Positions 2,531 through 62,672 of a stretch of 64,000 nt of DNA are shown here, one piece after another. The position numbers and the translations under genes are program-made. This DNA is from Octopus vulgaris. Lineage: Eukaryota. The notes under the pieces are model-generated. The model made no database searches. It saw nothing but the letters and a program-made list of their open reading frames with translations, and was not told the origin of the DNA. How positions within the stretch are numbered: the stretch's first letter is position 1; the number at the start of each line of letters is the position of its first letter. The DNA lies in assembly GCA_951406725.2 (NCBI GenBank), contig OX597822.1, forward strand, positions 26,102,001 through 26,166,000, in the 5' to 3' direction.

Positions 2531-4237
2531 GTATGTGTGTGTGTACGTTTGTATGCATGTATTCTGCATGTTCATGTGTTTGTGTGTTTGCATGTCTGAG
2601 TGTGTCTGAGTATGGGGTTTTGTGACTATGTACGTGCGTCTGTTATGTTTGGATGTGTGTCTCCATATGTGCCCTTGTGTGAAGTAGCACACTCAGACAT
2701 ACACACACAAGGAGACAGAGGTACACACACACACACACACACACATACACACACATACACACACACACATAAAATCACATACACACGAACACACAAACAC
2801 ATGAATATGCCGAATACATACATACAAACGTACACACATACATACATATATGCATGTATACACATACACACATACATACATACATTCATACATACATGTA
2901 TACTTATGTGTATGCGCACGCACACTGACCCACGCACATGCGCACAAACAAACAAAAAGAATGCAACTCAGAGAACGGTCAGAATCAACGACTATTGAAA
3001 GGGTTGCAGGACGCAGCGAAAATTTTGAAAAAAATAAATTAGTAAATTAAGTGGAAACAGAACCGGTGAGTGTGTTAAATAATAAGGTACAAAATAGAAT
3101 GACTCTCCCCAGACACAACAAGGTCTAGAATCAAAAGGCTTTAGTATGCTTCGCTGGATGTGCAATGTCAGTGTGCATGTACGACAGAGTGTAAGTAATC
3201 TTGAGAGAAAAATTGAGCATAAGAGGTATCACAGTGTGGCGAGCAAGAGAGATGACTGCGCTGGTATGGTCATGTAATACGTGTGGACGAGGACAGTTGT
3301 GTGAAGTGTCAATATTGGAGGGAACTTGTGAAAGAGGTACACCCAGGAAGACATGGGACGAGGTAATGAAGCATGATTTTCGAACATTGAGGCCTCATGG
3401 AGACAATGACAAGTGACCGAGATCTTTGGCGATATACTGTGCTTGAGAAGACTTGTCGAGCCAAGTGAAATCGCAGTTGTGGCTGACGCCAGAGTCGTGT
3501 AACTGGTACTCGTGAAAGGCGGCAAGCTGGCAGAAACGTTAGGGCGCCGGCGAAATGCGTAGCGTATTTCGTCGGCCGTTACGTTCTGAGTTCAAATTCC
3601 GCCGAGGTCGAATTTGCTTTTCTTCCTTTCGGGGTCGATTAGATAAGTACCAGTTACGCACTGGGGTCGATAATATAATCGACAATCCGTTTGTCTGTCC
3701 TTGTTTGTCCTCTCTGTGTTTATCCCCTTGTGGGTAATAAAGAAATAGGTGCTCGTGTCAATGGCATGTAAAAAGTACCTGCAGACGCTAGGTGATATAC
3801 TGTGCTTGAGAAGACCCGTCGGGCGAAATGTATTCGTAATCGCGTTCTGATGTCAGTATCGCATATGTGGCAGCCGCGCCGTTAGCACGTAAAAAGCACC
3901 CTTCTAACTTTGGGTTCCACGGAGGGAGTGACAAGTGGCTGAGACTTTTGGCAATATACCGTGATTGAGAAGACCTCTCAAGTCAAATGAGATCGTAGTC
4001 GTAGTCGATGCCGATGTTTCATGGCTGGCATCCGTGCCGGTGGCACGTAAGCATCCACTGCACTCTTGTAATGGTTGACATTAGGAAAGGCATCCAGGAG
4101 TAGAAACCATGCCAAGTCAGATTTAAATTTGGTGCAGTCCCCCAGGTTACCAGGTTTCTCTTAAACCGTCCAACCCATGCCAGCATGGAAAACAGACGTT
4201 AAATGATTATGATGATGATGATGATGATGATGATGAT

Positions 4238-4404: not shown

Positions 4405-6190
4405 ACACACAAATATACAGTACATATATGTATACACACACATGTATATATATATAAATATATATGCATATGCATACATATACACACACATACTTATAAT
4501 CATTCAGAGATATACAAAGTTTAAAATATAAAAATATCTCAATCATTGATAAAGGCAGTAGAAATTCATTTACCCAAATGCATACACCAAGCAAGGCTTC
4601 GTAGGATGATATCCATTATCCATACAAACATTCCATCCTCCGTCTCCATGAGAACCAACGCGGGCTATTTTGTTACACTTCACCTGAATTTGGCTCATGA
4701 ATCTAAAGTAATATTCAACAAATAAATTATTGATTTTTCTTTTACATGGACACAAGGACATGATTATAAAAGGCTGACAAGAGACATGAAGTGAAACAAC
4801 TACAACTGGGAATGAAAAGCTGCATTATTTGCTTCACTCTGTGAAAGGTTGTTGCTTCTACTCTACAACATTAAACAGACTGACAGAGAATCGCAGTGGA
4901 AACTGTGTAATAGTTCCTCATAGACCATGGAATTTGTTCTGGCTATTGTGTTTTTACATCAAGTCATACCAAAATCAATTTTGCTTTCCATTTTTTAAAG
5001 GTTGATAAATTACAGCACCATTCCTGTATAACAGACTGGAAGAATTTCAAAGTGTTAGATGAGATGCTTAGTGGGATTTATGAGGGACCTTTGCATTTTG
5101 AGTTCTTAGGTGAATTGGTTTAACAATACCACCATCTATTCTTGAGGTGCTTTAAATTGAATTTTCTCTGTTACAAGCATTTTTTCCAGGTTCTCAATTT
5201 GAGATAATTTACCCTCTTCCTTTCTAGCTTAGGTTGGGTAGTTTGACAAGTTCCAATGGATTCAAGGACTGTATCGTGCTCCGATGGCTGCCTTGGCATG
5301 GTTTGTACAGCTGCATGCCCATCCTAATGCCAAATAGCACAAAAAGAAAAAAGAAAGGTAAAAACAAAACAGAGTTCGCTTCGTAAAGCTGAGGCGTAGA
5401 GATTGTTTTATGTTCAGGTTTCAAGAATATTTAACGAAGCAGACGAAATGAAAAGGCGGCGAGCTGGCAGAAACGTTAGCACGCCGGGCGAAATGCTTAG
5501 CGGTATTTCGTTTGCCGTTATATTCTCAGTTCAAATTCCGCCGAGGTTGACTTTGCCGTTCATCCTTTCAGGGTGGGTCGATTAAATAAGTACCAGTTAC
5601 GCACTGGGGTCGATATGATCGACTCAATCCGCTTGTCTGTCCTTGTTTGTCCTCTCTGTGTTTAGCCCCTTGTGGGTAGTAAAGAAATAGGTATTTCGTC
5701 TGCCGTTACGTTCTGAGTTCAAATTCCGCCGAGGTCGACTTTGCTGTTCATCCTTTTGGGGTCGATTAAATAAGTACCAGTTACGCACTGGGGTTGATAT
5801 AATCGACCTAATCCGTTTGTCTGTCCTTGTTTGTCCTCTCTGTGTTTAGTGAGTAGTAAAGAAATAGAAATGAAACAGCTCCAATTAGGATTGTAATCAG
5901 TGTGTCTTGAACTTAATTTCTTCTTCGAAAAATTCAGCATAATTCCAGTTGATAAAAAATATTGATTTATCTGTTACTAATTCATATGAATATTGGGTAG
6001 TTCTTAGGCTGAGTTAGAAACCCAGTTTAACACCACAACCTTCTCCTTGGTTGCCCTTACTCTGTTTAAACATTCAGTCCAGATGTACCAGTTTCTCCTT
6101 GTGCCAGGTTAATCCTGAATGAACAGAGCAATGCTCAAAGGCATTCAAGCCGTGAATAATTTGTCTTTATTTATATGCACTTAATATTAC

Positions 6191-6244
<54 letters not shown>

Positions 6245-8210
6245 GAAAACTCACAGCTGCCAACATGGCTGAAAAAGATCGGTGTAAGTGTGAAGGTAGA
6301 ACACCTACAAAATCACCATTGCTTGGAACTGCAAGAATTCTGTAGGCGCAAGAGTGGCTGTGTGGTAAGTAGCTTGCTTACCAACCACATGGTTTCGGGT
6401 TCAGTCCCACTAGGCAAAAGTCTTCTACTATAGCCACGGGCCGACCAAAGCCTTGTGAGTGGATTTGGTAGATGGAAACTGAAAGACGCCCATCGTGTAT
6501 ATATGTGTGTGTGTATGTGTGTGTGTGTGTGTTTGTGTGTCTCTGTTTGTCCCCTCCACCATCGCTTGACAACCGATGCTGGTGTGTTAACGTCGCCGTA
6601 ACTTTGGCAAAAGACGATAGAATAAGTACTATGCTTGCAAAGAATAAGTCCTGGGGTTGATTTGTTGGACTAAAGCCGGTGCTCCAGCATAGCCGCAGTC
6701 AAATGACTGAAACAAGTAAAAGAATAAAAGAATAAGCTTATATTGCTGGGTATGATGGAAAGTGCCAGGTGTCCACAGCAAGCAGATTAAGGTGACACTT
6801 GTTTCCTGGTCATGCTTCAAGAACCCTGCGAAGAATTCTTGCAGTTCCAAGCGCTAGTGATTTTGTAGGTGTTCTACCTTCACACTTGCACCAATCTTTT
6901 TCATCTATGTTGTTAGTTGAGTGCCGATACTTCCAAGTGCACCAATTACTATTGGTATCACGTCTACTCTCTTAATTAACCACAACCTTCATATTTCCCA
7001 ATTTAAATCGTCGTAGTTGTTTATTTTTTTCTTCTTCTTTCACATTAATCTTGTTGTCGATAATCATACATGTTCTTTCTTTTTTATTCACCACAGCAAT
7101 GTCCGGTTTCCTATGTCTGGTCAGGTGATTGCACTAGATCGTTACATCCCACAGGATTTTGCAGTTTTTATTGTCGGTGACTCCCTCTGGGGTTTGTTCA
7201 TACCACGTCTCTGCTTTTTGTAGGCCGTGATTTCCACAGAAATTATTATCATATCTATAAAAGGGAGGATGTGTGTGCGTGTGTGTGTGTACGTGATTGT
7301 AATTTATGCACATCCACAAATTAGCATGCATGTGCTCAAATTTTAGGAGGACATTTATCAACAACCTATCTGGGTTTTGTCAACTTATTTTTTTCCCGGG
7401 GCACCCGCGGATAGGGTAAAAATCTATTTTCGACTATTTTCAGCCATAGCTTTTAACCATAACAAATATCAGCCATTACTTTTTGATGGCGTCTAACAAA
7501 AAAAAATAAGATAAAGAAAAGTGGAAGAAGGAGGCAGAGTTTCACGGGAAACACAAAGTGAGAGATGGAGAGAGAGAGTAAGTGACTATGTTCATAAAAA
7601 AAAATGTAAAATGTTTTTGTTTTTTGTTTTTGAAAGGCACACTATATTTTATAATCACACAACAATTACAATATATTTATTTTAAATCATTTATTTATTT
7701 TAAATCATTCATCTTTCTTCCCCCTCTATCTCTCTCACACATTACATTGGGTGTGAAAGAGTTTTGTTTTTATTTTACGCCGAGTAAAAAAGTGTTTTGT
7801 TGACAATCCATTTATTTAACAACAAAGAAACAATGAGGTGAATAACAATTTGTCAGTGAATTACACAATATAAATGGGTACAATTTGCGAAGCTTCCGCC
7901 ACACCCCACTCCGTTTCACGGACCACAAAAAGAGTTTTGATGCCAGAGTAGTTGACTCCATGCAAAAAAAACGTTTTTTTTTTCTTAATGAAAATTGTGC
8001 AAGTGTTAATCTACAAATTTAACATTTTTTCCATTCATTTCTGTTTATGAACATGTATGCGTGCACAAAACATGCAATAGGTGTACGTACGTACGTGTGT
8101 GTATGTGTGTTCGTGTCTGTTGCCCATATATATCTATATTATATTATATATATATAATATATACTATATATATCTATATTATATTATATATATATAATAT
8201 ATACTATATA

Positions 8211-8434: not shown

Positions 8435-8509
<75 letters not shown>

Positions 8510-11500
8510 GAGTAAGAGAGCATTTCATGCCATCAAAGTGACACAGAGATACAAATATACAAAGCCAAATATACCCATCATGGCTACCCGTCTGAAAAGG
8601 GTACACCAGGCACATGCATTACAAGCATATGTGCACGACATAGTGATCTCATGTCAAGATAAATAGCGCACAACGTTGCATGTGGAACCCAGTTAGAATT
8701 TTCTTCAGGTTGAGTAGCCCATCCTACTCAAAAGATCCCTGAATAAGGTTTGTTTAAGGATGATGGTCAAAAATCCCATGTTTCCAGGGGTGAATTATTC
8801 AAACCCCAAAGAATTCCTCTCAACACATGACTATGATGCTCCCCCACTACGTCTGCTCGCGATCAGAGATGCACATATCGTCAGCCACTAAGGGACATGC
8901 TCAACTGGTTAAGGTCAAGCAATTGACAAGCAAATTTATAGTATTGAGCAGAATAATTGCTGTAGCACTTCTTTTATATCGGGACAAAATAGGATATGGG
9001 AACTACAGTGAAGGCAAAAGTGTTGCATTCGCAATTTAAAGATTGTGGCTTCGATACCCACACCAGGTGGTACATTATGTTCTTTAGTAAAACGTTTTAT
9101 TTGACATTGTTTCAGTTCACTCAGCTGTAAATGATTTCCAACAATATCTGGAAAGTTAACTCTATGGCAGACTGACAACCCATTCAGAGACAATGTTGTA
9201 TTTTCAGAAATATTAAATTTCTAAATATCTCATAGAGATATGTACGGTGGTGGAGCGATAGAATGGTTGTATACTGTCAATTTAACGTGACAGTAGGGGA
9301 TTACACCACCGCTGTTTAGCCCTAGGAAGCATCGACGCCTCCTGATGGTTTCGACACATTTTTTCCTGTGTCCTTATATATTTACGAAGGGGAGACAAAT
9401 ACCCCCAGCAGCCAGGCCTGCATCTACAGACACGCATGTTTCAGGATCTTTCTCCATCATCGGTCTAGAGTAGCAGAAGCCCGCCAGCCGCAGATGAATC
9501 TTTATTATAGGCACAATGGCCCGAATGAAGAGGGGACATAATAATACAGGACATGGGGTACATATAACAAAAATACAAAAAGGATGGTATGACAATGAAA
9601 TATTTATAATGAATTAAATGGAATGGCTTACAAGCCCCGCAAAGCTCGCAGTTTCATTTACAATTACAATTGTGCTATCCGGGGCGTTCATCCGTAATGT
9701 AATCCTCCTGTTCTATAACACCTGGCAAACTGTCATATCGAATGTATTGCATTACGCCTACAGCTATATTTGAATACACATTTATTAATTTCATTACTGT
9801 CTCTCTTTCTACAATTGCCGCCTTTATTTGGTCATCGAATATCTTCGGGTTCAGTTTTACTCTAGTTAGATTTTTCATATTCGCTAATTTCTTCTCAATT
9901 TCTTTGTCCTTTTTGTACAACATTATAGCTTTGAGATTTCTTCGTTTTGGCCTTCATCCTTCCTTACATATTTTCAGTTGTTCTTCCATTTTTCTTTCCC
10001 ATTCTTTCTCTTCCTCCCACATTGAAACTTCACTCACTTTCGTTTCTGTATCTCTCTCTTCGTGCGTTCGATCCTCTATCTCGTCGGTAGACTTCTTTTT
10101 AGCTTTTTTCTTTTTTTGTGCTTTGGGTGGTGATTCCACCCGCGTTCTCTTTCTATCCTCTTTTTCTTCTGTTCTTTCCTTTTCTTTCTCCTTCACCAAC
10201 TCGTCACCACTTTCCACATTATCTGTAGTCACGATTTCCTCTTCCGCTTGCAATTCCACATTCGCCTTTTGTAACTCCTCTGTCAAAGCCTCCAGTATTA
10301 TCGTTTTCTCTTGTTCTTCTCTTAGCGGATACATATCCTTCATATGGCCTCTACTTTTACATTTGTAACACACTGGGGGGTCTCCCCTCCACCACGACTC
10401 TGAGACGTGTCTCGTCGGGGAACACCAACTCCTCTGGGATGTTATACAGGTCTGGCATGGTTATTTGAACCAAAGCCTGCACCGCATAACCCCACCAATT
10501 TATTTCTTTCGACTTTTCTACCTTCAGTATGTCGACGCTCTCTTTGCAGTTGAATATTATTGCCGCTACAATTCTTTCCGTGTCCAGTTCCGGTAAAATT
10601 TTACTAATCCGTATTCTCACTGCTCTTTTTCCACAATAGCTAGGTAGTAACACCCATTTTTCGGATTTCAATACTGTCGTGGCGTTTCTTTTCGCTTCGT
10701 CTTCGTTTTCAAAACGAACGTCTACTGTCGCGTATTTTCTACCTCTATTGTAGAAGGTAGTTTTTCCTTTAATTTTCCTTCTCGATTTCTTCCACCTCTG
10801 CTACTTCTATTCTCTTCGAAACCACACTCCACGTTCTGTACGTTATAATTCTCTTCCCAGCTTCTTTCACCTCGTCTTCAGGTGGTGTGACCCTCAGACA
10901 ATCACCTTCCTTCTTGAAGCTGTCGTAGTACTTCCTCAAACTCTCCTTCTCGATAACTATTTCTTCCAACTGTAGTACGGATGAACGCCCCGGATAGCAC
11001 AATTGTAATTGTAAATGAAACTGCGAGCTTTGGGGGGCTCGTAAGCCATTCCATTTAATTCATTATAAATATTTCATTGTCATACCATCCTTTTTGTCCC
11101 CTCTTCATTCGGGCCATTGTGCCTATAATAAAGATTCATCAGCGGCTGGCGGGCAGTGTTTGTGTCGGTTATTTTGTATTACGGTTATTGTGCATTGCGG
11201 TTGGAAGTTGGATTTTGTTGTTGGAAGTTGTTATGGCCCGGTGAATTGTTGGAGTTTTTGTTGGGTATGCAAGCCCAAACTTATGCGGGAGCAGCAGGCA
11301 AAGGCCTGGCTGCGAGCGAACTACAGGCCTCTATGGAGAGATTTAAACCCGGTTTCATTAAAAGACGTAACCTGACTTTATGGCAGAAGGAGTGCCGACA
11401 GGCACTCTGGCTGATCCACAAGGTGGGCAAGGCCGGCAGCGGGAATACCATCTCGATGTTCTATAGAGGGCTGGTAGAGGCAAAAAATGACAACGTCCTA

Positions 11501-14146
11501 GGAGGGGCTCTGGGGTTCGATGAGAACCAACTCTCCAACCTGTTTAAGAAGACTTTCAGGTCGGGGTATTTGGACAATTACCAAAAATCCCTGTCCTGGC
11601 AGTGCTATAGGAATGCATTACCTGTTCGCGATAAGTTATCCAGGCACGGAATGTCAGTGCCACCGACGTGTCCAAGACCTGGGTTGGACGATGAAACCAT
11701 TCAACACACTTTTGTACAATGTCGGGAGCTGTCAAGGTTGATAAGTTACGTTGAACACGTGTTGTCGCATCTGGGACGAGTACAGCTGTCGGCTGAATCT
11801 ATGATAAAGATGATACCGCCAACTGGACTCTCAAAGAAAGGTAAGGCTTGTTTTTACTGTACGGTGGCAGTACTGAAAGAGTGTGTGTGGAGAACCAGAA
11901 TGGAAGGTCTAGTGACAGAGTCCTTTGTCTCTGGCCCCGGTTTGTTAAAATACTTCAGATATCATCTGAAGAGCAAGATGAGGTTGGAGAAGAGGATCCT
12001 GCCACAGAAAGAGTATATGAAACGTTGGAAGGATGTGATGAGAAAGGTGGGTGTTAGTAACCCAGCTTAATCATCGAAGAAAGGAAAAATTAGTTGCTGG
12101 GCTTTATAGGCTGCCGGGTTCAAAATTCGAAACCGGCACTTCCCATTCCTTTTCATTTTACATATGTTATAATGTCTAATGATTTTTTTTTGCTTAAAAA
12201 AAAAAAAATAAATAAATAACACGCACTAAAGTTCTCGTTATAAAGGCAAAAGTAAGCCAAGTTTTCGTTCATGTTACATTATAATTAAATTTTTATAATT
12301 TTCAAGTATCATTCGAACTCTCATAACATTCTCTGTAATTGTTTGTCTTGTAATGTCCAATTTTATGTAAAATCGCATGATTGTAATAAAGATTTCATCT
12401 GCGGCTGGCGGGCTTCTGCTACTCTAGACCGATGATGGAGAAAGATCCTGAAACATGCGTGTCTGTAGATGCAGGCCTGGCTGCTGGGGGTATTTGTCTC
12501 CCCTTCGTAAATATATAAGGACACAGGAAAAAATGTGTCGAAGCCATCAGGAGGCGTCGATGCTTCCTACTGTCACGTTAAATTGACAGTATACCACCGT
12601 TGTATTTTCACTTATTTGCAAACCTTTGAAACCAGTTTAAGCTCTCTGCCTTTATGAGTCCCAGAATTCATGACTAACCTAAGTAATAGTAAATATCGGA
12701 CAAGATTATCCAGTGCATCTTTTGCCTTTGAAGGCAGTGAGGTGTTTTGGGGGTACAATTTGGTGCTATTTCTTGCAAGTTGAACGGTCACATAGAGGAG
12801 CCAGTCTTGGATCATAAAAATACTTGTTGATGCTGTTGTTAAGTCCTGGGCAACTAATGGGTAAAAAATCACAGATCCTAACAATCAAAACTCGCTTGGT
12901 TCAATATAGTGGCGAAACACACGTACTTATCTACCATGTTCCATTTCCTTTGACAAAAGAGCTTCAGAATAATAACTTGACTTGCTCAATGAAGCAGACA
13001 AATTCTTCTACACACAATTTCCTAAACTTCCTTCGAGTGGAGAAATCCCAAACTTCAAATCTTAAATTTAAAGACAGCATGCCCCCAAAATATAATGGAA
13101 TGCCATGGATACAATGATAATGTATTAATGAGTAATAGTAGTGATAGAGAAGGTACATGCAAAGAGACGAAAATTTACAAGAGCAGTAAATGCATGTGTT
13201 AAAAGTAGGAAAATTTACGAAGCCCTTAAAATTAAGAAAAATAAAGAAATATAGAATATATGAAAACTTCTAAATCAGAAAAATTTATGCAAGTTTAAAT
13301 TTTGGAAATCATAGAGTCTTCAAAAGCAGAAGAACCAAAGGTAGTCTTAGAAATCAGAACAACCAACAATGATTTAAAGCACTGCAGGAATAGCAAATAG
13401 ATAAGAGAAGAGTCTTAAGATGTTCGTGTTGTTCTCAATATCATTAGTTTTAAAACACATGAAAACCAGCTGATTACCATTGAAAGGTTTCTTGTAATAT
13501 ATTTAACGAAGAACGTGTAAAAGATAAAGGAATGAAAGAATATTACCTGTGGTATATCTCTTCAAGATCTGATGCAGATTTTGCATCTAAATTTTCTTCG
13601 GACGGTAAAATCTAAATAAGAAAACAAAATATTGAAGATAGAGATAAATAACAGAATGTTTCGCGTATTTTCAGGGTTCAGGATTTGAGATCTAAGAAGA
13701 TAGTTAAAAAACTTGAATTTATGACGACTTCAAAGATCAAGGGCAGATCTATCACCTCATTGGTTCCCTGTTACCCACAAATGAACAACCACAGTTCCTC
13801 CAAATTTAATTTATGAGTGATGTAGGACAACAAACCCGAAGGAGGTGTCAATATTTCAGATGATAGGTCGTGTTAGACACAGTGCCGACTGCTGCAAAAG
13901 AGAATATATCCACTGGCATCTTCTCGGTGCGTTCAAAAATCTCATAATCCCCACAGATTAGGGCCTGAAATACTCCAAACACACGCATAGGATGTGGCTT
14001 AGACGAATTAGCCCATCATTTACTGCACAAATGTTTTGTTGTCAATGCTGCACATTCCCATATCACCTGTTTCAGTATAACTGTAATATATTATATACAA
14101 ACTATAACATTTTAATCCCGAGCAACATCGGGTGTCTCTGCTAGTA

Positions 14147-17622: not shown

Positions 17623-17931
17623 GCCATGTTGATTCGTTAGCTACTGCACGCATTTTTTTCTCTCCTTCTTTCTGTGTTTTTCTCTCTCTGTGTATCTTTC
17701 TGTTGAAGAGCGTAGGCTCGAAACGTTAAAGACTTGTTTTATTTATATTTCCTGAGCGCCATACTAATACAATTGTTCGTTTGTTTTCCACCTGCCTTCG
17801 TCTTTTGTTTATTTTCATAAAGCTTCCCGTTATATATATATATATACGCAGTGAAGCTATACAATAGCGTCGTATTTATTACGATCGCTATTTTCCAGTA
17901 AATATCGGTACTTCGTTGTACCATTTATTTA

Positions 17932-19019: not shown

Positions 19020-21615
19020 AGAGGACATAATAGATGTCCACTAAGTGGACATCTATTATGCTAGATGTAAACCCCATATATTCTGACCACTAAGAAAAAA
19101 TTGTTCTCAAGAAAATTCAGCAATTTTTCTGAATCTTCAGATTTTTCAATATGCTAGGTCACTGGTTTTAGATTGATATTAATCAACTTAATATTCAGTT
19201 TATCACCCTTATTATTTAATTTTAAATTTAAATAACCATGTTCTCTAACCGGCAAAATTCACTGCAGAGAATTATCTTCTGCAGAATTATTTCCAGTATT
19301 TTGACGCACCAAAACGAAGACTTTTGAAATATAATCCTAAATGTAATCGGTAGAACTATATGCATGTTCAATCTTATGCGGACGTCTCGTGTACAGTTCT
19401 GTAAATTATATTTTGTTATGACGATCACACTGATGAATTGCGGACATTTACGTAAGTATTACGTAAGTAGTAACAATGAAACAATGAAGATATACTACTA
19501 GCCATAGATGAGGTGGACGCAAACTCAACTACTGGGTCTGATGGTTTCCCAGCAATCCTCCTCAAATCAGGTAAGTGTGCCCTGGTAGAACCCCTCCAGA
19601 TTCTCTTCCAAGGCTTTTATGCAAATGGCAGATTGCCAAGCAAGCTGAAGGAGGGAATAATATGCCCAATCCATAAAGAGGGAAGCAGAGCAGATGCCAA
19701 AACCTATAGGCCTATCTCTCTGACTTCACACATCAGCAAAGTCATGGAACGGATAGTCAGAGGGAAACTAATCGCATTCCTTGAAGAAAATAACTTCGAC
19801 CAGGTAGGAGCTGCCTGACCCAGCTCTTACAACATTATGACTAGGTACTGAGGCAGTTACTCAACGACTCAAATGTGAACGTAATATACGTTGATTTTGC
19901 AAAAGCTTTTGACAAAGTGGATCATGGTATGATATGCCACCAACTGCGTGACCTTGGCATAGCTGGAAAACTTGGAGAGTGGATACATGACTTCCTAAAA
20001 AATAGAAGTCAGGCAGTAGTGGGCAATGGAGCCACTTCAATGAAAACACAAATAGTGAGCGGTGTTCAACAGGGCACTGTCTTGGGACCACTGCTTTTCA
20101 TAGTGGCCCTCTCAGATATGCCCTCAACTACCCGGATAGCCACCCTTGCTAGCTACGCAGACGATACGAAAGTCTCGCAGAAAATGCAGAACCCCAGCGA
20201 TATTGCACATCTGCAAGAGTTGGACTCAATTTACAGATGGGCTGAGGATAATGATATGCAGTATAAAGCTGAAAAATTCCAAGCCCTGCGCTACCAGCAT
20301 CCAAAACTGAATAGTAAAATTACAGAGTACACTGGTCCACATGAGTTTACAATCCCAGTGCCTAAATCAGTGAGGGATCTGGGCATCAACATGAATGATG
20401 ATACCTCTTTCCAAGTGCACATTACCAGGATGGCGACAAAATGCAGACGACTGGCTGGATGGATCCTAAGAACATTCAGAACCAAAGATAAGAAAACCAT
20501 GATGGTCCTCTGGCGGACATTCGTCCTCAGCCGCCTGGATTACTGCTCACAGCTATGATCACCCACCAGTGTGAGATTAACAGCTGACCTTGAAGCAATC
20601 AAGAGAAGATTCACAAAGAAGATCGTCTCTTTCCAACAGCTCAGATACTGGGAAAGGTTGAAACAGCTAAGACTCTACTCCCTGGAGCGAAGACGGAAGA
20701 GGTGTGCAGTAATATACATCTGGAAGATCCTGGAAGGAATTGCGCCAAATTTTGGCATTGAAAGCTACACCAATGCCAGAATTGGTCGATACTGCATAGT
20801 GCCAAAGATCTCAGCAATGTCATCGCGCCTCAGGACCAGTTACTGCACAGAAACCCTACAGCTTTTTTATATTCTCCCAAAGAGCCTGGGGACCCTGCAC
20901 AAGGTAGATGTAGGCGTTTTTAAATCAAGGCTGGACCTCTTCATGTCGAGACTCCCAGATGAACCGACCTCACGGCAAGAGGTGCAAATGAGGGTAGCTA
21001 CATCAAACTCTATTCTTCACCAAGTGCCACATATTGGAGGAGGCTCTCAGTAATAAGAGTGTAGCAGTGTGCATCAGAATGTCCAGAGCTCTGAGCTGAA
21101 ACTACAAAACATATATATATGTTGTTGGCATCCTTTTGTCTCGGGAAACAATGGAGTTACGCATAAACTAATCCAGTCTGGTTTTTACATTTCATGTCCT
21201 CTCCAGTCTTGCGCAGGCCTGGACTAGATGTAAGAAAATCCTGGGTAGCCCAATCGTCAAGATTCCTCTCTCGACCTTGCTGACGTAGTCCAAAGGAGTG
21301 CAGAGCATTACGTTTGGCACCAGCTTGGTTGCAGGAGCTGCCGGAAGAGTTTCAAGCCGAACACTAAACCACCTACGGGGCTCCACTCCGGATTTCTTTG
21401 AAGGTCGTCTCCTTTCCATAACCCTGGATAGGGTCCTATACCGGGTACTGTCAGCCGGAGCCAGCTGAGCCCGGGACTTGTGTCAGGCAGGGTCGTTACT
21501 CCCTGAAGTAGTGAAGAAAATCGCTACCCACTACCTATATATATGTGGTGGTATATATATATATATATGGTATTTACATATATATATATAATATGGTATT
21601 TATATATATATATAT

Positions 21616-21689
<74 letters not shown>

Positions 21690-24600
21690 CAAATCTACTG
21701 AAAACAAAAGACAAAGACAGGTGCAGGAACAACAAACAAGAATGTGTATTAATTTAACGCTCGTGAAGAATGGAAAAGACTTTTACGTTTCGAGCCTACG
21801 CTCTTTGACAGAAAGGATTATGAGGTGAGAGAGAGAGAGAGAGAGAGGGGGGGGGAGAATGAGAAAACAAACGGAGAGAGAAAAAATGAATAGAGATTAA
21901 CGGTTTAATATTATGAAATGTCCGGAAGAAAGTGACAGAAAGGATTAAATGGGAGAATGAAAAAAAAGGATAAAGAAAAGAAATGTGTGCGTGTGTATAT
22001 GTGTGTGTGTGAATATATATATATACACACACATATACACACGTATGTATGTATGTATGTATGTATGTATGTATGTATGTATGTATGTATGTATGTATGT
22101 ATGAGTATATCAGGTCACTTTCGAGTGCTACTGGTGACATGTAACCCAGTACAACCAGTTGCATGGTCGGGTCGTTGGTGACTAAACCGGCAACACCACC
22201 AAGCTTGCTTGGTGAGGAGAGTGTTTATTGGACACCCTGCGGGATGAAAAACAAAACCCGTCAAAGGGCGGAGGAACTCTTGAGAGTCAACGGCCATCCA
22301 ATAAATGCCTTAAGGCTGTATCATGCGCGAGGACATAGAATTAATCGAACTGAATACCCGATCGCGCGGTTAAACCATTGGGACTGAAGGACTCCTAGCC
22401 TTTGTTAGGGCATCCTTCTAGGAGAAGGTAACTCAGGAAACTGGGATAACTCCGACATAAAACCTGCGGCTCAGTGGTTACCGATGATGTTGACTTGTTC
22501 TTCTTTTCGGATTATTGCTGCTGTTGCTTAGTGAGTGGGATTGACTCAGTGCACAGCCTTTCCTCACTTTAAAAAAAATCTTCTTGCACAGGCATTGCAT
22601 GATAACAACATTGATTAAGCTTCGTGCAATGGCCATACTCGATAACGAGGGGGCAGCCACCATGTATGTATGTATGTATGTATGTATGTATGTATGTATG
22701 TATGTATGTAGGTATGTATGTATGTACAAAGTCATGAATGAACGAACGAGCGAATGTTTCTGTTAAATAAATTCACTCATAAAGCTTCACTTGGTTCGAG
22801 GCTTTGTCAAAGTACCACACAGGGGAACTGAGCTTGAAAGCAGTTGATCCCTCCTAGAATACAAGTGCACGTGTGCGCATGTGTTGTTCTGTAATAAACA
22901 TAAATATCTATGCGCGTGGATAAAGTTGCTGACGTGTACTTTTGACAACGCCATCTGGGGCAGAGTAAATCACATAAAAACATGTTACATTCAACGAGTT
23001 TTAATTTTTTTTTTTTTTTACTACAACAGTGATCACAAAGGTTGAATAACAGAATAATTTAATCTGTTGTAAAGGCGGCGAGCTGGCAGAAACGTTAACA
23101 CGCCGGGCGAAATGCCTAGCCGTATTTCGTCTGTCGTTACGTTCTGAGTTCAAATTCCGCCGAGGTCGACTTTACCGTTCATCCTTTCGGGGTCGATAAA
23201 TAAAGTACCAGCTTCCCGCTGGGGTCGATGTAATCGACTTAATCCCTTTGTCTGTCCATGTTTGTCCCCTCTATATTTAGCCCCTTGTGGGCAGTAAAGA
23301 AATATAATTTAATCTGTTGTATGAAACAGCATACCTTAGAACATGAAGAGTGTAAATAGTACTTTCAGAGCCAATAGTATTTTCAGATCAACGATTTACT
23401 AAAGCTAATTAAAATTACTTTAATTACTGTTTTGTAGTATATTTTATAAAGACTAGCCTTCGTGGTTTTCTTGCTACATAAATGCTGGTAGTTTCACTCG
23501 TCATACCGAGCTAAACCTAATCATTAAGCGGGTCCTGGCTCGGGTTAATATCTCCTCAGTTCTGGAGCTGGCAGAAACGTTAGCATGCTTTGTGGTATTT
23601 CGTTCGCCGCTACGTTCTGAGTTCAAATTCCGCCGAGGTCGACTTTGCCTTTCATCCTTTCGGGGTCGATAAATAAAGTACCAGTTACGCACTGGGGTCG
23701 ATATAATCGACTTAATCCGTTTCTCTGTCCTCTCTGTGTTTAGCCCCTTGTGGGTAGTAAAGAGATAGGTATTATCCAGAAGTGATTAGAAGAGACCAGA
23801 TGGTCTACCCTTTTGTCCCTGGTTAAGAAATAGGTGCTTCATCTAGGACAACACAGTCTGTGAATCCTTTGCCCCCTTTACATCCTGGATGCTGTTATAA
23901 ATGGGAACGTCACAACTTTCGTAGCTGAACCGAATAAAATCCTTACGTATCGGGACTTGTCAGTGAACCATTTCTTCTGGTCTGTGGTGCTTGAGGCGTT
24001 TGGAGGGGCTGGACCGCTAACAGTAAAGTTCTTGTCAGCGTTGGCAGCTCGCCTTACCAAGGTGTCGAGTGATGCCTATGAGGGTGTTTGGTTGTTACAT
24101 CTGAATCGCCCCAATAATGCCGCGAGCATGTTGGCTTGCATCAGTAGGGTTCCATTGAATATTGTAGTGAGGTACCAATTGTAGCTCTTAGTGTTGAAGT
24201 GATCCCTTCTTCTTTCTTTTTATTCTTTTCTTTCTCTTTTTTTTTCTGTCTTCACTTATGTTTGAGTTTTCTTTGGTTTTGGATTTGGATTTTAATGTGT
24301 TTTTGCATAATATATGTATCATATGCATACGTGTTATATATGATAATTAACTTATCTAAATTTTCATTAAGAGCAAAGAAATGTTATATATATATATATA
24401 TATATATTAGCCAACATAACGTGGCAGTCCTGAATAGGACAATGTTACTTCGTTTATCGACACGTGATTTATGTCCGAGATATATTGCAAATAAGGGGGC
24501 CTACTACTGCCTTCTAGCAGTTGGTGGTACCAGTAGATCAATGGTTTCTGGGTAATTTCCCTTCTTGTTCTGGACAACCGCCTGGCTAGAGACAGTACCC

Positions 24601-41400: not shown

Positions 41401-44400
41401 ACAGTACTTTTTAGTACTAGATACACACATACAAGACAGAAAGAATGAGTGAGAGAGCAGTATTACAATTTATTAATTGAATACAATTGACATAAATATT
41501 GTTCCCCTCTTTATACACATAAAAGGAAATATAGCCACACACATAAACCAACAGAGAGGAGATGGAGAAAGTGAAAGAAATATTAAAACGTCTGATATCA
41601 AATAAGACAGCATTGGATCAGTGTTACCAAATAGGCAGTACCAAAACAGTTGTGACAAAATGTCTCATCTCTAACATTTAGTGTCAGCCCATCACTAGGT
41701 GAGACAAGCTGACACTGAATCAGCTTCGCTGACTGACAGATGACGGTCGTTTAGAGAATGTGCGGGCTAAGACTACGAACCTTCACTAGTCAGTTAAGGT
41801 GAGACAGTGTCACGTGACAACTTGTGAGGGCTGCCTGCTGGAGCCAAGCAGCAGGTATTTAAAGGGATCCTATAAAGGAGCTGTTGTGGTAGCAGACCAT
41901 GAAACACGGTTGTAATTCCTCTATACCAATACGAGAAGTAGTGAGGACCAATCTCACGACACAGGTTTTTATAAAAGACCTTAACTAGTGGAAAAAACAC
42001 TGTGTTAAAACATGTCCATCCTACCCGTATTAGGATAGAAAATACAAAATTTTCAGTGCTACTTTGGCGTGATCTACAAGGGAGATTACTTTAGGCTACT
42101 TTTTAAATTATTTTGTACATACTTAGAATTGTAAATGTATTTTTTTCAAAATTCTTTCTATTTTGATAATAAGAATACCATACAATAATTACAAAAAAGG
42201 CCCTTAAATCATACAAAATAAATTTGCTCACGTAGAGCACACGGAAAGTAGCACTAACATAAAGTAAACTAAAAAGTAACCTAAAGTAATCGCCCTTTAA
42301 ATTCTAACTCTCACACTAAAGTGATACCTTTCTTTTTGTTAAATGATGTTTCTCTATCGTCTTTAGAAACTAACATGCATTACATAATGTAGTAAGGAGT
42401 GGCTGTGTGGTAAGTAGCTTGCTAACCAACCACATGGTTCCGGGTTCAGTCCCACTGCGTGGCACCTTGGGCAAGTGTCTTCTACTATAGCCTTGGGCCG
42501 ACCAAAGCCTTGTAAGTGGATTTGGTAAACGTAAACTGAAAGAAGCCTGTCGTATATATGTATATATATGTATGTATGTGTGTGTGTGTTTGTGTGTCTG
42601 TGTTTGTCTCCCTAGCATTGCTTGACAACCGATGCTGGTGTGTTTACGTCCCCATCACTTAGCGGTTCGGCAAAAGAGACCGATGGAATAAGTACTGGGC
42701 TTACAAAGAATAAGTCCTGGGGTCAATTTGCTCAACTAAAGGCGGTGCTCCAGCATGGCCGCAGTCAAATGGCTGAAACAAGTAAAAGAGTAAAAGAGTA
42801 TAGAAAGTGAAATGGTCATTGTTGGAAAGACTTTGATCAGGTCTGACCTGGATTTAAAACAAATAAACTAATAAACTAAACTACATGTAACATAAACTAA
42901 ACTACATTAACATGTAGCATAAACATAAACGAAACTACACATAACATAATTCACCTGCTTCATAGATACAAGTTAAATAATAGGTGCTAGCACCATTGCC
43001 ACCACAAACAAAAGAAGGTACTTACAATGGATCAAAGGAATGCACTTCACAGCTAAAGATTTTCTGCATTTCAACATCAAAACTTGACTCAAGACCAATT
43101 CTGTTGAAAGAAAGACAATATGTATATGATGTGTGTCTGTGTGCATGCATGCATGCGCATTAGTGACTCTTTGTCTTAACTTTGTATGATAGCTGTAAAC
43201 AAATGTCACTGTCATACAAGTGGTGTCTTTTATTTTCATTCTTCTGTGTAAAAATGCCAGGGCATGGAGAAATAATACCTTACTTGAAAACATCTAAGGG
43301 CATCAGGCTGTAAAAAATCTGCCTCAACAAATAATGACTGACCCATGCATGCATAACACAAATCAGTATTTCTGGGATGAAGAATTTTTATATTATGAAT
43401 TAGCCAGAGTAGTGATCTTATCTTAGTTGTTGCTTTTCACTATGTTTCAGCTGTGTATGCTCCACCTTTTTCAGGTAGATTGTAACTGACCTTAGTAAAC
43501 TTGCCTAGGATTGAACTCCGAACTTCTAGGCAACTTCACTGCATTAGCTAGCACCTTTATCCACTATGCTAAATCCATAGGCAGTAACAGTCATTTTTAA
43601 GGTTTATAAAGCTTCATTGATTGTCTTATGTTGTCTCCTTACTGATTGGATGACACAATTCTATATTGGTGAGATTAGGAATTTTCATATTATGTATAGT
43701 GAAGGTACATGGCTCAGTGGTTAGTGCGTTGGGCTCAAAATCATAAGGTAGTGAGTTCAATTCCTCGACCAGGTTGTGTGTTGTGTTCTTAAGCAAGACA
43801 CTTTATTTCCCTCAGCTGTAGGAATGAATTGCGATGTCACTGGTGCCAAGCTGTATCAGCCTTTGCCTTTCCCTTGGATAACACCAGAGGTGGCTGAGTT
43901 CCTTTCAAGCGTTGGACCTCATAGAAGCAAGGTGGCCAAGCTACTGAGCTTCATAGAGGTAAAGTGGCTGAGTTATTTTTGAGTGTTGGGCCACATGGGG
44001 GCAAGGTGGCTGAGTTCCTTTTGAGTGTTGGGCCTCATGGAAGCAAAATGGCCAAGTTACTGGGCTTCATGGAGGCAAATAGGCTGAGTTCGTTTTGAGT
44101 GTTGGGCCTTATGAAGGCAAGGTGGCTGAGTTCCTTTCATGCATTGGGCCTCATGGAAGCAAAATGGCCAAGTTACTGGGCTTCATGGAGGCAAAGTGAC
44201 TGAGTTCCTTTTGAGTCTTGGGCCTTATGAAGGCAAGGTGGCTGAGTTCTTTTTGTGCATTGGGCCTCATGGAAGCAAAATGGCCAAGTTACTGGGCTTC
44301 ATGGAGGCAAAGTGGCTGAGTTCCTTTTGAGTGTTGGGCCTTATGAAGGCAAAGTGGCCAAGCTCCTTTCAAGTGTTGGGCTTCACAGAGGCAATGACAA

Positions 44401-46636
44401 AGACCGTTGGAATTATGTTATGGTGAGAAGACCCATCAAGCCAAGCAAAATCACAGTCATAGCAGATACCAGTGTCATGCAAATGGTACCTGTGCTGGTG
44501 CCATGTAGAAATACCCATTACACTCTCAGAGCGGTTGGCACTAGGAAGGGCATCCAGCTGTAGAAAACTATGCCAAATCAGACTGGATCCTAGCAGAGCC
44601 TTCCAGCATATCAGTCCAGTCAAACTGTACAACCCATGCCAGTATGGACAACGGATGTTAGATGATGATGTGTGGAGAGGAGAGGCTGGTAATCACAGGG
44701 AGCTGCTGGTCTTCCATAAACAACATTGCCCAGACTTGTGCCTTGGAAGGTAGCTTTTTAGGTGCAATACCATGGTCATTTATGACCAAAGGAGGTCTTC
44801 ATATCATGCATAAGTCAGACTAGTGTCTTCATCTTGGTTGTTGCTTTCACTATGTTTCAGCTGTTGTACACTCCAGCCATCCTCAGGTGTCTTGTGATTA
44901 ACCTGAGTACCTTCTCTGGAATTGCCTGGAAAAGTGGATGTTAAAAATCATCATCTTCATCATCGTTTAACATCCATTTTCCATGCTAGCATGGACTGGA
45001 CGGTTCGACTGGGGTCTGGGAAGTCAGGAGGCTGCACCAGGCTCCAGTCTGATCTGGCAGTGTTTCTACAGCTGAATGCCCTTCCTAATGCCAACTACTC
45101 TGTGAGTGTAGCAGGTGCTTTTTACATGCCCCCAGCACAGGTACCAGGGGACGCTGGCAACGGTCACGATTGGTTGGTGCTTTTTACATGCCACCGGCAC
45201 GGGTATCACAACTACAATTTCCATTTGATTTTTATTTTGATGTTGATGTACTTGACTCAATAGGTCTCCTCAAGCACAAAATAGTAATGATAATTATACA
45301 CAAACACATATAATATATAACAGGCTTCTTTCAGTTTCCATCTACCAATCCATTCATATGGCTTTGGTCAGCCTGGGGCTATAGTAGAAGACTCTTGCCC
45401 AAGGTGCAACGCAGTAGAACTGAACCTGAAGTCATGTGGTTGGGAAGCAAACTTCTTAACCACACAGCTATACCTGCACATATATATCAATACATTTTAT
45501 ATACAATGAAATATTGATTTCAAAATCTGGCACAAGGCCAACAATTTCGGGGGTGGGGTTAAGTTGATTACATCAATTTCAGTACTCAACTGGTACTTAG
45601 TTTCCTGACCCTGAAAAGATGAAAGGCAAAAAAATCAAAAACTGAGTACAGTGGAATCTGAACTCAGAGTGTAAAGACGGATGAAACGTCACAAAGCATT
45701 ATGCCAAGTGTGCTAATGATTTTGCCAATTTGTTGCCTTTATACTATGAAATATTGGAAATCAATATATTCAATTACATTAAATTACCTTTTCTTGTAAC
45801 AGCTGTCATACACTACATTATATATGGTGCATTTATGAGTCTCCAAACAATTGCAATCCAAATATCAAAATATATATTATACATAGTAGCATATTTATAC
45901 ACTTCTTATGTTAACTCTCTCTGTATCTCTCTTTTACTCCATTTCCCCCTCTCTCTTTGAGATGCAAAGAGTGATCAGAGAAATCAAACCAACAATTTAT
46001 ATATGCGTGTGTGCATAAATATACAATTCTTATTTCTTTATTGCCTACAAGAGGCTAAACATAGAGGGGACAAACAAGGACATTAAGTTCATTACATCGA
46101 CCCCAGTGCGTAACTGGTACTTAATTTATCGACTCTGAAAGGATGAAAGGCAAAGTCGACTTTGGCATAATTTGAACTCAGAACGTAACAGCAGACGAAA
46201 TACCGCTAAGCATTTCGCCCAGCATACCAACGTTTCTGCCAGCTCGCCGCATAAATATACAATTCTGTTATAAGAATTCATGCATGTGTGCATATGTGTA
46301 TGTATATAAACATATTATTTTGTTATGAGAATTCCAAACTAATGTGGATTGTCTGGGCCAACGTTTAAAATCTTACCTATAATTTTACCTGATGATGGTG
46401 CATTATATATTATGATGTATTTTCTATGACTGCATAAAATAAATAAAACTGTACTGAAAATTTGAACATTTCATAAATTTGAAATGCCAATTGTTTACTT
46501 TTTATATATAGAAATTTAACTATATAATGATTATAAAAAATGATCTATAATTGTATATGAATTTAAACTCAGCAACATAAAGCTGGTGTGCAGTGCAGAA
46601 AAAAATGTGATCTAAAAGCTATTATCCTCCATCCTA

Positions 46637-52177: not shown

Positions 52178-52589
52178 GGATCTTTTCGGTTTGACCGGCA
52201 GTTTTTTAAAATAATTTCCACGTAACTAAACACGTTTAAATTTCGTATACTGGTAGAATGTGTTTATAAAACATCTTTTTCTCTTGCCTTTATTGAGAAA
52301 ATTCTATAGTTTGTAAGATATTTGTTGTTTTTTTTCTTCAATTTCTGCAATTTCAACCAATCAATGACGTCTATTGAGGTGAAAACATTCTGTGCCGTAT
52401 GAATATGTCCCTCGTTTAAGAAACAGATTGGGTTTATTTACATTTCTGAAGAAAAAAAGATACGCTTCCCCCCACACCTAACCCTAAAACAGATTGAAAC
52501 GCAATAGATCGATACTAGTGTCATAATTATGGGTGACAATTTCATATGACACCGCTAGAAAAAAACTGCCGTTCAAACCGAAAAGATCC
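52178..52589. mobile_element. GG-terminated MITE (Merlin-like); same family as 57941-58374 and 63032-63466, opposite orientation
   Basis: Terminal inverted repeat GGATCTTTTCGGTTTGA.CGGCAGTTTTT; absent from the copy A upstream region. Confidence 0.85.
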
Positions 52590-58374: not shown

Positions 58375-59499
58375 GATTAATCAAATTCATTCCCACTGCA
58401 TTGCGCGACGGTGCATTTATAAGCATGCAAGCACCTCGACAATCTTTCAGAAATCCTATTAATGATATTCTCATTGGTCCACAAAAAAGACAGGGGTTCC
58501 TCGGAGCGGAGTCTGCATCTTCTGGAAAATATACTATACGGTTGCGCGTATCTTGTTATTGACCAAGTTAGATCATATTTAATTTTATCTTCCTTAAGGA
58601 TGTGACAACTGCAGAGAGAGAGAGAGAGAGAGATGCCTGCAACAGCAGTGTGGGCTAGATTGACGCGGAAAAATGTATTTTGCTCAAGGACACAAAAAAA
58701 CAGCTGGTCAAAGAATTGAAACTGCAACATTATGATCGTGACCCGAACATTTAATCTTATTTTCTTTCCACTTTAAAGCAGGGTCGTCGTAGCCATAACG
58801 TTAATTTTATGTTCAGCTTCTCCTCAATTAGATTGTCGAGTCAGGCCTTAATACGATTGAAAATAAAGGAAATGCTTAACTTCATGTACACTCAAGTAAA
58901 CTTTAACCTCATATTAAGATTATTTAAGCGCTTATGGATACTAAATTATATTTTACATTATTGATTAAGAAGAAGTAGATAAGAAAAAATAACTTGCATT
59001 AATAAATCAAATGACACTGTTATCAAGGTAAGTAACTCTAATTTGACATTATAAAGTTGTTTCCCTTGCAAAAAAATTGGTTTCACTTAATGGTGTTAGT
59101 TGATGTTGCCTATTTCAGTTCTAATCAAAGCATTCTAAAACAAATTATTTATGATTATATTATCCACCGTGTGTCTCGTTTTTGAAATTGTATGGTATAG
59201 TTTTGAGAAGAATTTGGTTGATAACTTTTTTGTACATCGTGTGATTATGACAAGGTTCCCCAACTAAATGTTATAATGGCTAAGAATATTCATCTAGTAA
59301 GCAAGAGATGTGAAAGTTAGACTTTATCAGCACTTCTCATTGTTAATATTCACTCTTGAATTCTCATTTAGCATGAATATCGTTAAACATTTAAAAAAAA
59401 TAAAATTTGTAGTTGTTCTATAACCGACGTACTAAAGATTCTGCCAGCTGCCACCTACTTCGCCTCTCCGTTCTAATATATTTATAAAATCGTTATCAG

Positions 59500-60138
59500 T
59501 TATCAGGCGCAGCCGTCTCGCCGACATGTCCGCGATGTGAGCAGGATAGGGAAACCATCTTTCACGCATTCGTGGAGTGCCCGGAGTTATCGGGACTGAT
59601 TGCTTTTGCCGAACAACTGTTGTCAGTGAATGGAAGAGTACAGCTATCAGCGGAGTCTATCATTGAGATTGTGTCACCTCCCTTCCTCAGCAGGGAAAGG
59701 AAGGCTTGTTTTTCCTGCGTAGTATCCATACTGAAAGAAACAGTATGGAAGACGCGTACGAAAGGTATAGTGACAGGTACCTTTGTATCCGGCCAGGGGT
59801 TGGTTAGCTTTTTAGTTACCACCTCGGTAGTAAGATCAGGCTGGAGAAGAGGTGTCTGTCACGAGATATGTTTGCGAAAAGATGGAAGTCTGTAGCTTGC
59901 AAGCTGGGTATATTTTGCACCAGGTAAGTGTGGCCGGATCAAGAAGTAAAGGTTCTACCCAGATGGCTGGGTTCCTTGCCCTACTGTGTAATATTAAATT
60001 TGTAAACTTTATATTGTAAATATTGTACACATTATATTGTAAATACTAAAACGTTTTAAGCTACTACACCCTATATGTTTGTCTGTATTTGTATGTCCCC
60101 TCTATGTAACGCCTTAATGGCGAATTTTCATGAAGTAA
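59500..60138 (+). mobile_element. Tx1/L1-clade LINE 3' fragment (zf-RVT plus 3' UTR), related to 11155-12392
   Basis: PTCPRCEQDRETIFHAFVECPELS...RVQLSAESI...KACF..V.ILKE.VW.TR. Confidence 0.85.
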
Positions 60139-60537: not shown

Positions 60538-60599
<62 letters not shown>

Positions 60600-60928
60600 G
60601 TACAGGACGTCACCAACTGTGCAAACAGCATGAAATACGTAAATAACAAGAGAAAGATGGAAAACGGGACAAGTAAATACAGAGAAAGGACCCTTCATCA
60701 GTTGTCGGCTGTCTATCTACTCCTCATTTCGAGCATTCAACGACAATATGAGTCTTCAAAGACAGTTGTTCCCATAAATTCTAAAATAAAATTTAGGATT
60801 TATGAAGGGTCAAAGCTGGGAACAAAAACAGGACAATGGAGACACACAAGGAAAACGACCGGAAACAAACATGGAGGAGCGTTAGACCAGAACGAGAGGA
60901 AAATAGTGAACGCTCGGAGTTTTAGTAT

Positions 60929-60963
<35 letters not shown>

Positions 60964-61936: not shown

Positions 61937-62147
61937 CCTTTCATTTACTTTCTTGTCATGCGTTGCCAAGCTGGCTGATCAACAAAAAATCCAAAGCAAA
62001 ATTTTTTTTAAATCATTCAAAAAGAAACATAAGTATATTTGGAAGGCCCAGTAAAAGTGGCACTAATAATACTTGAACGCCTTGTTAATTCTTGACGACA
62101 ATTTTAGTGCGGCTGAAGACAATCCTTTTACATCTTCTTAGTTCAGT

Positions 62148-62672
62148 ATGATTGAAGAAGATAGCTTTACCGAAAAGAACGATTCCATCATAGATGATGC
62201 AATCTTCGAAGACGATGGTGAAATCATCGAAAATAAAGATATTAAAGAAGAAAGTCTCACCGATCTCCTAGATGATATAAGAAAAGTTCAAGAAAATTTG
62301 CCCGAAACGTTGACATCTGTTCAACAAACCTCCGAAATTGAAAAACCGGAGCCGAAGAAATTCGATAAGCGGAAAAGTTGTCGGCGGTTGTCTAAAGTAC
62401 ACAAGAATCCCTATATTCTGAAAACCGCTAAAAGTAGCACCGCAGATGAAAACCCTATTATGGAGGAATTGATCGATGATATAATTTTCGATTTCTGCGA
62501 CTGGGTTGAAGAAACGGTATCAGCTTTGGAAGAACATGAACGGAAATATATTATGACAACGCTGACTAGCTTTTTTGAACTGAAAGCCATACTAAGTACA
62601 GAACCAGAAAAATGTCAGCAGGCAAAATTTCGATGCCAAGTTCGTGCATTAATGAGATTGAAACGTTTTTGA
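62148..62672 (+). CDS. uncharacterised acidic protein, 174 aa (single-exon gene or terminal exon)
   Basis: Intact, non-repetitive ORF with protein-like composition. Pyrimidine-rich acceptor-like TTCTTAG/TTCAG just upstream. No transposon motifs recognised. Confidence 0.55.
   Translation: MIEEDSFTEKNDSIIDDAIFEDDGEIIENKDIKEESLTDLLDDIRKVQENLPETLTSVQQTSEIEKPEPKKFDKRKSCRRLSKVHKNPYILKTAKSSTADENPIMEELIDDIIFDFCDWVEETVSALEEHERKYIMTTLTSFFELKAILSTEPEKCQQAKFRCQVRALMRLKRF

Follow-up and report, generated by a model that had tools for sequence, protein, structure and literature searches.

The DNA considered here is a 64,000-nucleotide stretch of the Octopus vulgaris genome (GenBank assembly GCA_951406725.2, contig OX597822.1, positions 26,102,001 to 26,166,000; hereafter the window), and its subject is a 3.4-kb unit in which long interspersed nuclear elements (LINEs) of two families end at the same 20-bp sequence, upstream of a predicted hammerhead ribozyme within a repeat. 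We consider it probable that an endonuclease of the L1/Tx1 type cuts a site ahead of the predicted hammerhead and primes reverse transcription there. An earlier note on this DNA had proposed site-specific targeting of a hammerhead-bearing repeat, and this is still the best reading, with two amendments: the 20-mer duplication belongs to the element that encodes only the first open reading frame (ORF1), here called A, and the two arms of the repeat go back to one source copy. The second LINE, B, retains part of ORF2, while A' is a truncated second copy of the 3' end of A (Table 1).

The coincidence of 3' ends is the foundation of this proposal. Allowing up to three mismatches, the 20-mer TTCATC(A/T)GCGGCTGGCGGGC occurs three times in the 64-kb window, and none of 100 shuffles held any match. 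All three LINE 3' ends in the unit, those of A, A' and B, lie at the 20-mer within one base; each 20-mer is directly preceded by AATAAAGA, with an additional T at 12393 in the case of B. The 3' untranslated regions (UTRs) of A and B are dissimilar (best local alignment score 23), which confirms the earlier description of three 20-mers behind two unlike UTRs, and their last ~50 nt are weakly similar, at a score equalled by 6 of 1000 random 50-mers. The hammerhead-like motif reported downstream of the 20-mer is likewise present, in both arms. Beyond the window, contigs of four runs (X1, X2, X4 and X8) were compared with window positions 10850-12700, and 15 of 42 joints and 24 of 1377 loose ends are shown. 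One of the joints shown, in an X1 contig of depth 84.6, connects the 3' end of A with the hammerhead region (11142 to 12402). It is placed beyond the variable base of the 20-mer, and we read it as an A-variant junction that is absent from the window.

Element A appears in the window in two pieces, the smaller of which is inverted. One contig in X1 and one in X2 join 11326 (+) to 10969 (-), a 6-bp word is shared by both breakpoints, and the 20 codons that begin with the ATG at 11267 run in frame into the minus-strand ORF1 across this joint; together these features indicate that 10976-11326 is an inverted segment of 351 bp. Further joints lie close by (10945/11326 in X1 and X2; 10976/11287 in X1), and no contig bridging the window's own inversion breakpoints is found among the joints shown. 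The inversion may be a later event or an assembly artefact. With the inversion undone, the order becomes A', 20-mer, complete A (1,643 bp), 20-mer and repeat arm. A then carries the 20-mer at both ends, and the apparent target duplication belongs to it. A', at 159 bp, is 98% alike to A, with two mismatches and a 39-bp deletion.

This arrangement displaces the earlier assignment of an ORF2 element to 11155-12392, flanked by a target-site duplication (TSD) and starting with 11155-11326. Similarity to ORF2 begins only at 11354, both by tblastn and by blastp to P0156, a relative introduced below, and 11155-11326 is the inverted 5' end of A, which contigs join in frame from 11326 to 10969. The candidate of B as a TSD-flanked, internally deleted element was also ruled out, since the A body breaks at the very 6-mer that ends the 5' piece and contigs join the two.

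A is a HAL1-like ORF1-only element, complete with a 112-nt 5' UTR, ORF1 and a 3' UTR; relatives of ORF2 gave no tblastn match in 9499-10969. An ORF1 with an RRM and a gag-like CCHC knuckle is typical of Tx1. In the ORF1 of A the zf-CCHC match is weak (E=0.0058) and misses the cut-off, and matches in the atlas, at 0.91, provide a lead to an RRM, one of the clusters having 18% RRM_1. Across the ORF1 stop and the 3' UTR, contig depth amounts to 5,998-7,050 in X1 versus 66.7 over unique flank, and no contig spans the whole of A.

Element B supplies the link to a full ORF2. The open frame at 11132-12070 is a composite in which ORF2 similarity is confined to residues 75-311; its zf-RVT match (PF13966) has an E-value of 1.5e-8, and B shares 48% identity over 238 aa with P0156, a protein of 1,111 aa with Exo_endo_phos, RVT_1 and zf-RVT domains. 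HMMER returned 324 relatives at E<=0.001; among the 20 clusters examined, the named members are all 'hypothetical', three of them from fish, and no named Tx1 reference came up. A search for longer ORF2 forms was without match, and full-length relatives were recovered through the clusters instead. Close relatives, P0156 among them, combine these three domains, and the solved structure nearest to them is LINE-1 ORF2 (E 1e-50). P0156 has an apurinic/apyrimidinic endonuclease (APE), a reverse transcriptase (RT) and a C-terminal zinc knuckle, a layout common to Tx1 and L1, and B itself is truncated, with neither endonuclease nor RT. In a tree of C-terminal regions, which besides B contains unnamed and fish proteins and no named Tx1 element, B and P0156 group together at 99/98. 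Calling these LINEs 'Tx1-like' thus draws on layout and behaviour rather than on phylogeny. B lies head to head with A' and reads into the right repeat arm; contigs of ORF2 relatives diverge from the window sequence at 11326 and continue with different bases, ten of them in X1 and nine in X2.

Several other retroelements occur in the window. At 59488-60130 (+) lies an older relative of B, 47% identical to P0156; like A, it has TGTCCCCTCT in its 3' UTR, which ends near TTTCATG, just ahead of a short interspersed nuclear element (SINE). A hammerhead target for this third LINE copy was considered and ruled out, as 102 and 250 of 300 shuffles score equally. Reverse-transcriptase fragments of another, more distant LINE lie at 19486-20351 (+), with 25-34% identity to P0156 and P0166. 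There is also a SINE-like family of ~235 bp with at least 12 copies, at 3515-3750 and, for example, from 5452, 16742, 23071, 28117, 46031 and 54224, some of them arranged head to tail. The 3' tail of the family is similar to that of A, with TGTCCCCTCT, a small hairpin and TAAAGA; 0 and 3 of 1000 random 50-mers reach the score of the SINE tail against that of A. The family may use a Tx1-type partner. In general character the SINEs of the window are octopus-like.

The repeat downstream of the LINEs is abundant. Summed contig depth at 12440, which is not the same as copy number, comes to 94,976, 1,615, 20,899 and 49,365 in the four runs against 66.7, 0, 29.4 and 51.3 for unique flank, and repeat depth exceeds unique flank by three orders of magnitude in X1, X4 and X8. 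A type I hammerhead has the core CUGANGA / GAAA / NUH with stems I-III; the window copy reads CCGAUGA (one mismatch), GAAA and GUC and has a 3-bp stem III. The contig letters shown, 40 of 457 rows, do not include that of 12430. At 12440 and 12465, C accounts for 99.2-100% of contig depth in all four runs and both arms carry G; with the contig letters, stem I pairs again and stem II pairs better. That both arms share G variants of less than 1% of depth argues for their derivation from a single copy, and the three sites are accordingly not independent samples of the target. The 20-mer, from 12399 onward, pairs with 12471-12490 and extends stem I (z -2.9; 2 of 200 shuffles), which suggests that most of it is part of the repeat.

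Rfam returned no match at E<=5 in 8500-13500 and none at gathering scores in the window, a tRNA gene search found none, and the unconstrained fold of the region is a long hairpin rather than a hammerhead; circular folds of the left arm lie ~2-3 standard deviations below base shuffles, too weak for use. A further repeat of ~330 bp, at 60598-60930 (-) between (TA)n tracts, shows a degenerate hammerhead layout with another CTGATGA half-core behind it; its plus strand reads TTCATCAG, as the target does at its start. Minimal hammerhead-like motifs also occur in other repeat families, at 17700-17724 (+), 21669-21815 (-), 44854-44886 (-) and 43444-43474 (-), and are probably Penelope-type ends.

The outer architecture of the unit consists of two outward-facing repeat arms inside a 12-bp direct repeat, with a one-sided extension of 58 nt on the left. 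The direct repeat was found post hoc, and a common word of at least 12 bases turned up in 12 of 3000 random piece pairs. By analogy with known insertions, the unit and its repeat may be Penelope-like. Another repeat end, with copies at 52178, 57941 and 63031, adjoins an acidic open frame of 176 codons at 62142-62672 (+).

Table 1. Features of the 3.4-kb unit, in window coordinates
Feature	Position	Strand	Basis or detail
12-bp direct repeat, left copy; candidate TSD of the whole unit	9195..9206	+	
Left repeat arm, outward-facing	9207..9498	-	9207-9264 is the 58-nt extension, absent in the right arm
Predicted type I hammerhead, left copy	9423..9469	-	letters identical to right copy
20-mer TTCATC(A/T)GCGGCTGGCGGGC, T variant; 3' junction of A	9479-9498	-	pattern search
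Body of element A: ORF1 with a frameshift, an RRM-like region, a CCHC-type knuckle and a charged tail; 3' UTR ending AATAAAGA directly behind it; no ORF2	9499..10969	-	
6-bp word at both inversion breakpoints	10970..10975 (-), 11321-11326 (+)		sequence
A', 5'-truncated second copy of A 3' end; inverted segment begins here	10976..11134	+	2 mismatches and 39-bp deletion against A
20-mer, A variant, between A' and 5' end of A; upstream duplication of A once un-inverted	11135-11154	+	
Inverted A 5' end: 112-nt 5' UTR and first 20 ORF1 codons, ATG at 11267	11155..11326	+	contig joints, reading frame
Element B, 5'-truncated LINE: ORF2 C-terminus with zf-RVT, stop 12070, 3' UTR ending AATAAAGAT	11327..12393	+	domain search, tblastn
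20-mer, T variant; first bases of right repeat arm after B	12394-12413	+	
Right repeat arm, begins with 20-mer T variant; 29-bp deletion relative to left arm	12394..12598	+	
Predicted type I hammerhead, right copy	12423..12469	+	stem I 12423-28/12464-69, CCGATGA 12429, GAAA 12450, GTC 12461-63
12-bp direct repeat, right copy	12599..12610	+	

How might such a unit have been assembled? We propose that a Penelope-type or retrozyme-type insertion left two inverted arms from a single template, and that a LINE enzyme then cut the bottom strand where the 20-mer begins and, 13-20 nt on, the top strand. A staggered cut of this kind would regenerate the site at each insertion and allow copies to stack, as in the series A', 20-mer, A. 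Priming within each of the two arms, perhaps coupled in a single event, would have produced two 5'-truncated complementary DNAs (cDNAs) joined head to head, with loss of the target's upstream half on either side. At the variable position the middle 20-mer reads A and both arms read T, which suggests that the A'-20-mer-A piece was copied from a stack elsewhere, probably from its read-through RNA; the X1 joint between A and the hammerhead region fits such an origin. A would be a non-autonomous passenger of a B-like ORF2, and the inversion would have come later, if it is not an artefact. The site starts with the antisense of CTGATGA; a second hammerhead on the opposite strand, were one to start there, would have its other half in the missing upstream DNA.

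A number of observations weigh against targeting of this site. The evidence comprises one locus and one contig, and the unit contains one target duplication, of 13-20 bp; for comparison, Kojima's working rule for target specificity asks for one sequence type in >20% of flanks, with a TSD. The two 20-mers that flank A differ at one base, and a LINE-free, empty target site was not seen in the run contigs. The third LINE copy, at 59488-60130, has no 20-mer behind it, nor does the 20-mer follow any of the 12 listed SINE copies with an A-like tail, which indicates that similar tails insert at other sites too. Depth across the first bases of the target is also low: at 12394-12399 it is at most 14,629 in X1 (~2,400 under a simple assumption) versus 94,976 at 12440, and under the same assumption the excess is near zero in X2 and X8. 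The repeat may accordingly start near 12400, in which case TTCATC may be LINE tail and the duplication 13-14 bp. No loose end of the type 'before 12394-12401' was present among those shown. The window does not contain the target's upstream half, nor did the contigs yield it. Searches for target-junction flanks elsewhere found nothing in metagenome contigs (by hammerhead pattern or ORF2 profile) or in viral contigs and prokaryote genomes, and no predicted peptides spanning a LINE/target junction were found.

These observations feed into three other explanations. A single LINE/repeat junction could have been duplicated and rearranged at this one locus, recombination or gene conversion within the shared AATAAAGA having brought the second family to that base. 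The private variants shared by the arms, the 98% likeness of A' to A, the rearranged state of the locus, with its inversion and deletions, and the location elsewhere of another LINE copy, the third, and of 12 similarly tailed SINE copies all speak for such a history, but it does not account for the 20-mer that precedes full-length A, calls for homologous exchange between UTRs that are too little alike, and does not provide for the additional A-variant junction in the X1 contig. We regard it as quite unlikely. A second alternative is a template jump, with no targeting of DNA: RT would copy the RNA of the hammerhead repeat as far as a fixed 5' end near 12394-12401 and then switch to a LINE RNA at its 3' end, bringing different LINE tails to one base. 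For the lone 20-mer that separates A' from the start of A, this would demand a jump onto a 20-nt piece, whereas a staggered cut explains it directly. A template jump would suit the high contig depth that begins near 12400 with no upstream continuation among the loose ends shown, the absence of the target's upstream half from the window, and the Penelope-like outer features of the unit; on balance, it strikes us as decidedly improbable.

It is also conceivable that A and B have a 3' tail of their own in common, one that includes the ribozyme together with the 20-mer or just its first 6-7 bases and that serves to process read-through transcripts. The same sequence does stand behind both families, and the first six bases of the target are not high-copy in contigs. 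Yet the hammerhead region has a depth of 107,063-379,023 compared with ~1,400 at the LINE 3' ends in X1, which implies that most copies of the repeat are without a LINE, and no ribozyme follows the middle 20-mer; we consider such a tail very improbable. The targeting we favour can also be extended. A Tx1-type lineage might have specialized on ribozyme-bearing Penelope ends and become Penelope cargo, such that the 3.4-kb palindrome, with its 12-bp direct repeat and one-sided tail, would be a Penelope-made insertion carrying Tx1 stacks to a new site: a LINE that lands just upstream of a Penelope 3' end would be carried by the Penelope machinery. Its enzyme may then recognize the conserved core word of the hammerhead itself, the target site opening with the antisense of CTGATGA. 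This extension seems unlikely.

Targeting of one mobile element by another has ample precedent in the Tx1 clade, whose described targets include piggyBac, Mariner, Harbinger and long terminal repeat (LTR) elements, small nuclear RNA (snRNA) and 5S genes, satellites and microsatellites, and whose members form tandem copies around a TSD (PMC4494074). For instance, Tx1L of Xenopus laevis inserts into the non-autonomous piggyBac-type Tx1D, and the crocodilian Tx1-Mar and SINEU-3 insert into Mariner-N4_AMi (PMC4494074, PMC1950540); the endonuclease of Tx1L is sequence-specific in vitro (PMC1950540). Like these systems, the Octopus unit would combine an APE-type LINE with a fixed insertion site inside another mobile element, tandem copies that sandwich a TSD, and a non-autonomous partner with a common target. 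In contrast, the Octopus target is a hammerhead-bearing, retroelement-like repeat, unlike any of the target types listed above, the host is a cephalopod, and the partner is an ORF1-only element. This partner invites comparison with HAL1 (half-L1), a non-autonomous derivative of the L1 group that encodes ORF1p only and has been described for mammalian L1 (PMC5753468). A shares this layout, but comes from an invertebrate Tx1-like lineage and appears to be site-specific.

Animal non-LTR retrozymes consist of tandem monomers of 150-450 bp, each with a type I hammerhead. The Octopus repeat resembles them, and the pseudo-LTRs of Penelope elements, in combining a predicted type I hammerhead within a repeat of a few hundred bases with inverted arms and a one-sided extension; it differs in that no RT/GIY-YIG ORF of the repeat and no tandem copies of it are visible in the window. 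Insertions of Penelope-like elements are often flanked by inverted copies and carry a tail of 30-40 bp on one side (PMC8557442), whereas the Octopus extension measures 58 nt and the window copy has C at core position 4. Animal retrozymes have been argued to descend from Penelope-like elements (bioRxiv 10.64898/2026.07.22.740005). At the base of its helix II the predicted Octopus hammerhead has a U-U pair, a feature shared with axolotl HHR_Amex2 (PMC7229834). O. vulgaris has 80 L1-Tx1 and 190 Penelope-like consensus families (PMC13282606). In the literature we found no report of Tx1 targeting a Penelope element or a hammerhead repeat, although Repbase entries and supplements may hold one; PMC3747384 and PMC4758252 were consulted and gave nothing further on targets.

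The habit of Tx1 elements to aim at other mobile elements is already known, which limits the surprise of the present case; what is likely to be new is the class of target, a hammerhead-bearing repeat. If our proposal is correct, a ribozyme-bearing retroelement would join the known targets of Tx1, and an ORF1-only passenger would be seen to retain target specificity. The unit would also furnish a new pair of APE endonuclease and target, with a defined 20-bp site that could be assayed in the manner of the Tx1L endonuclease.

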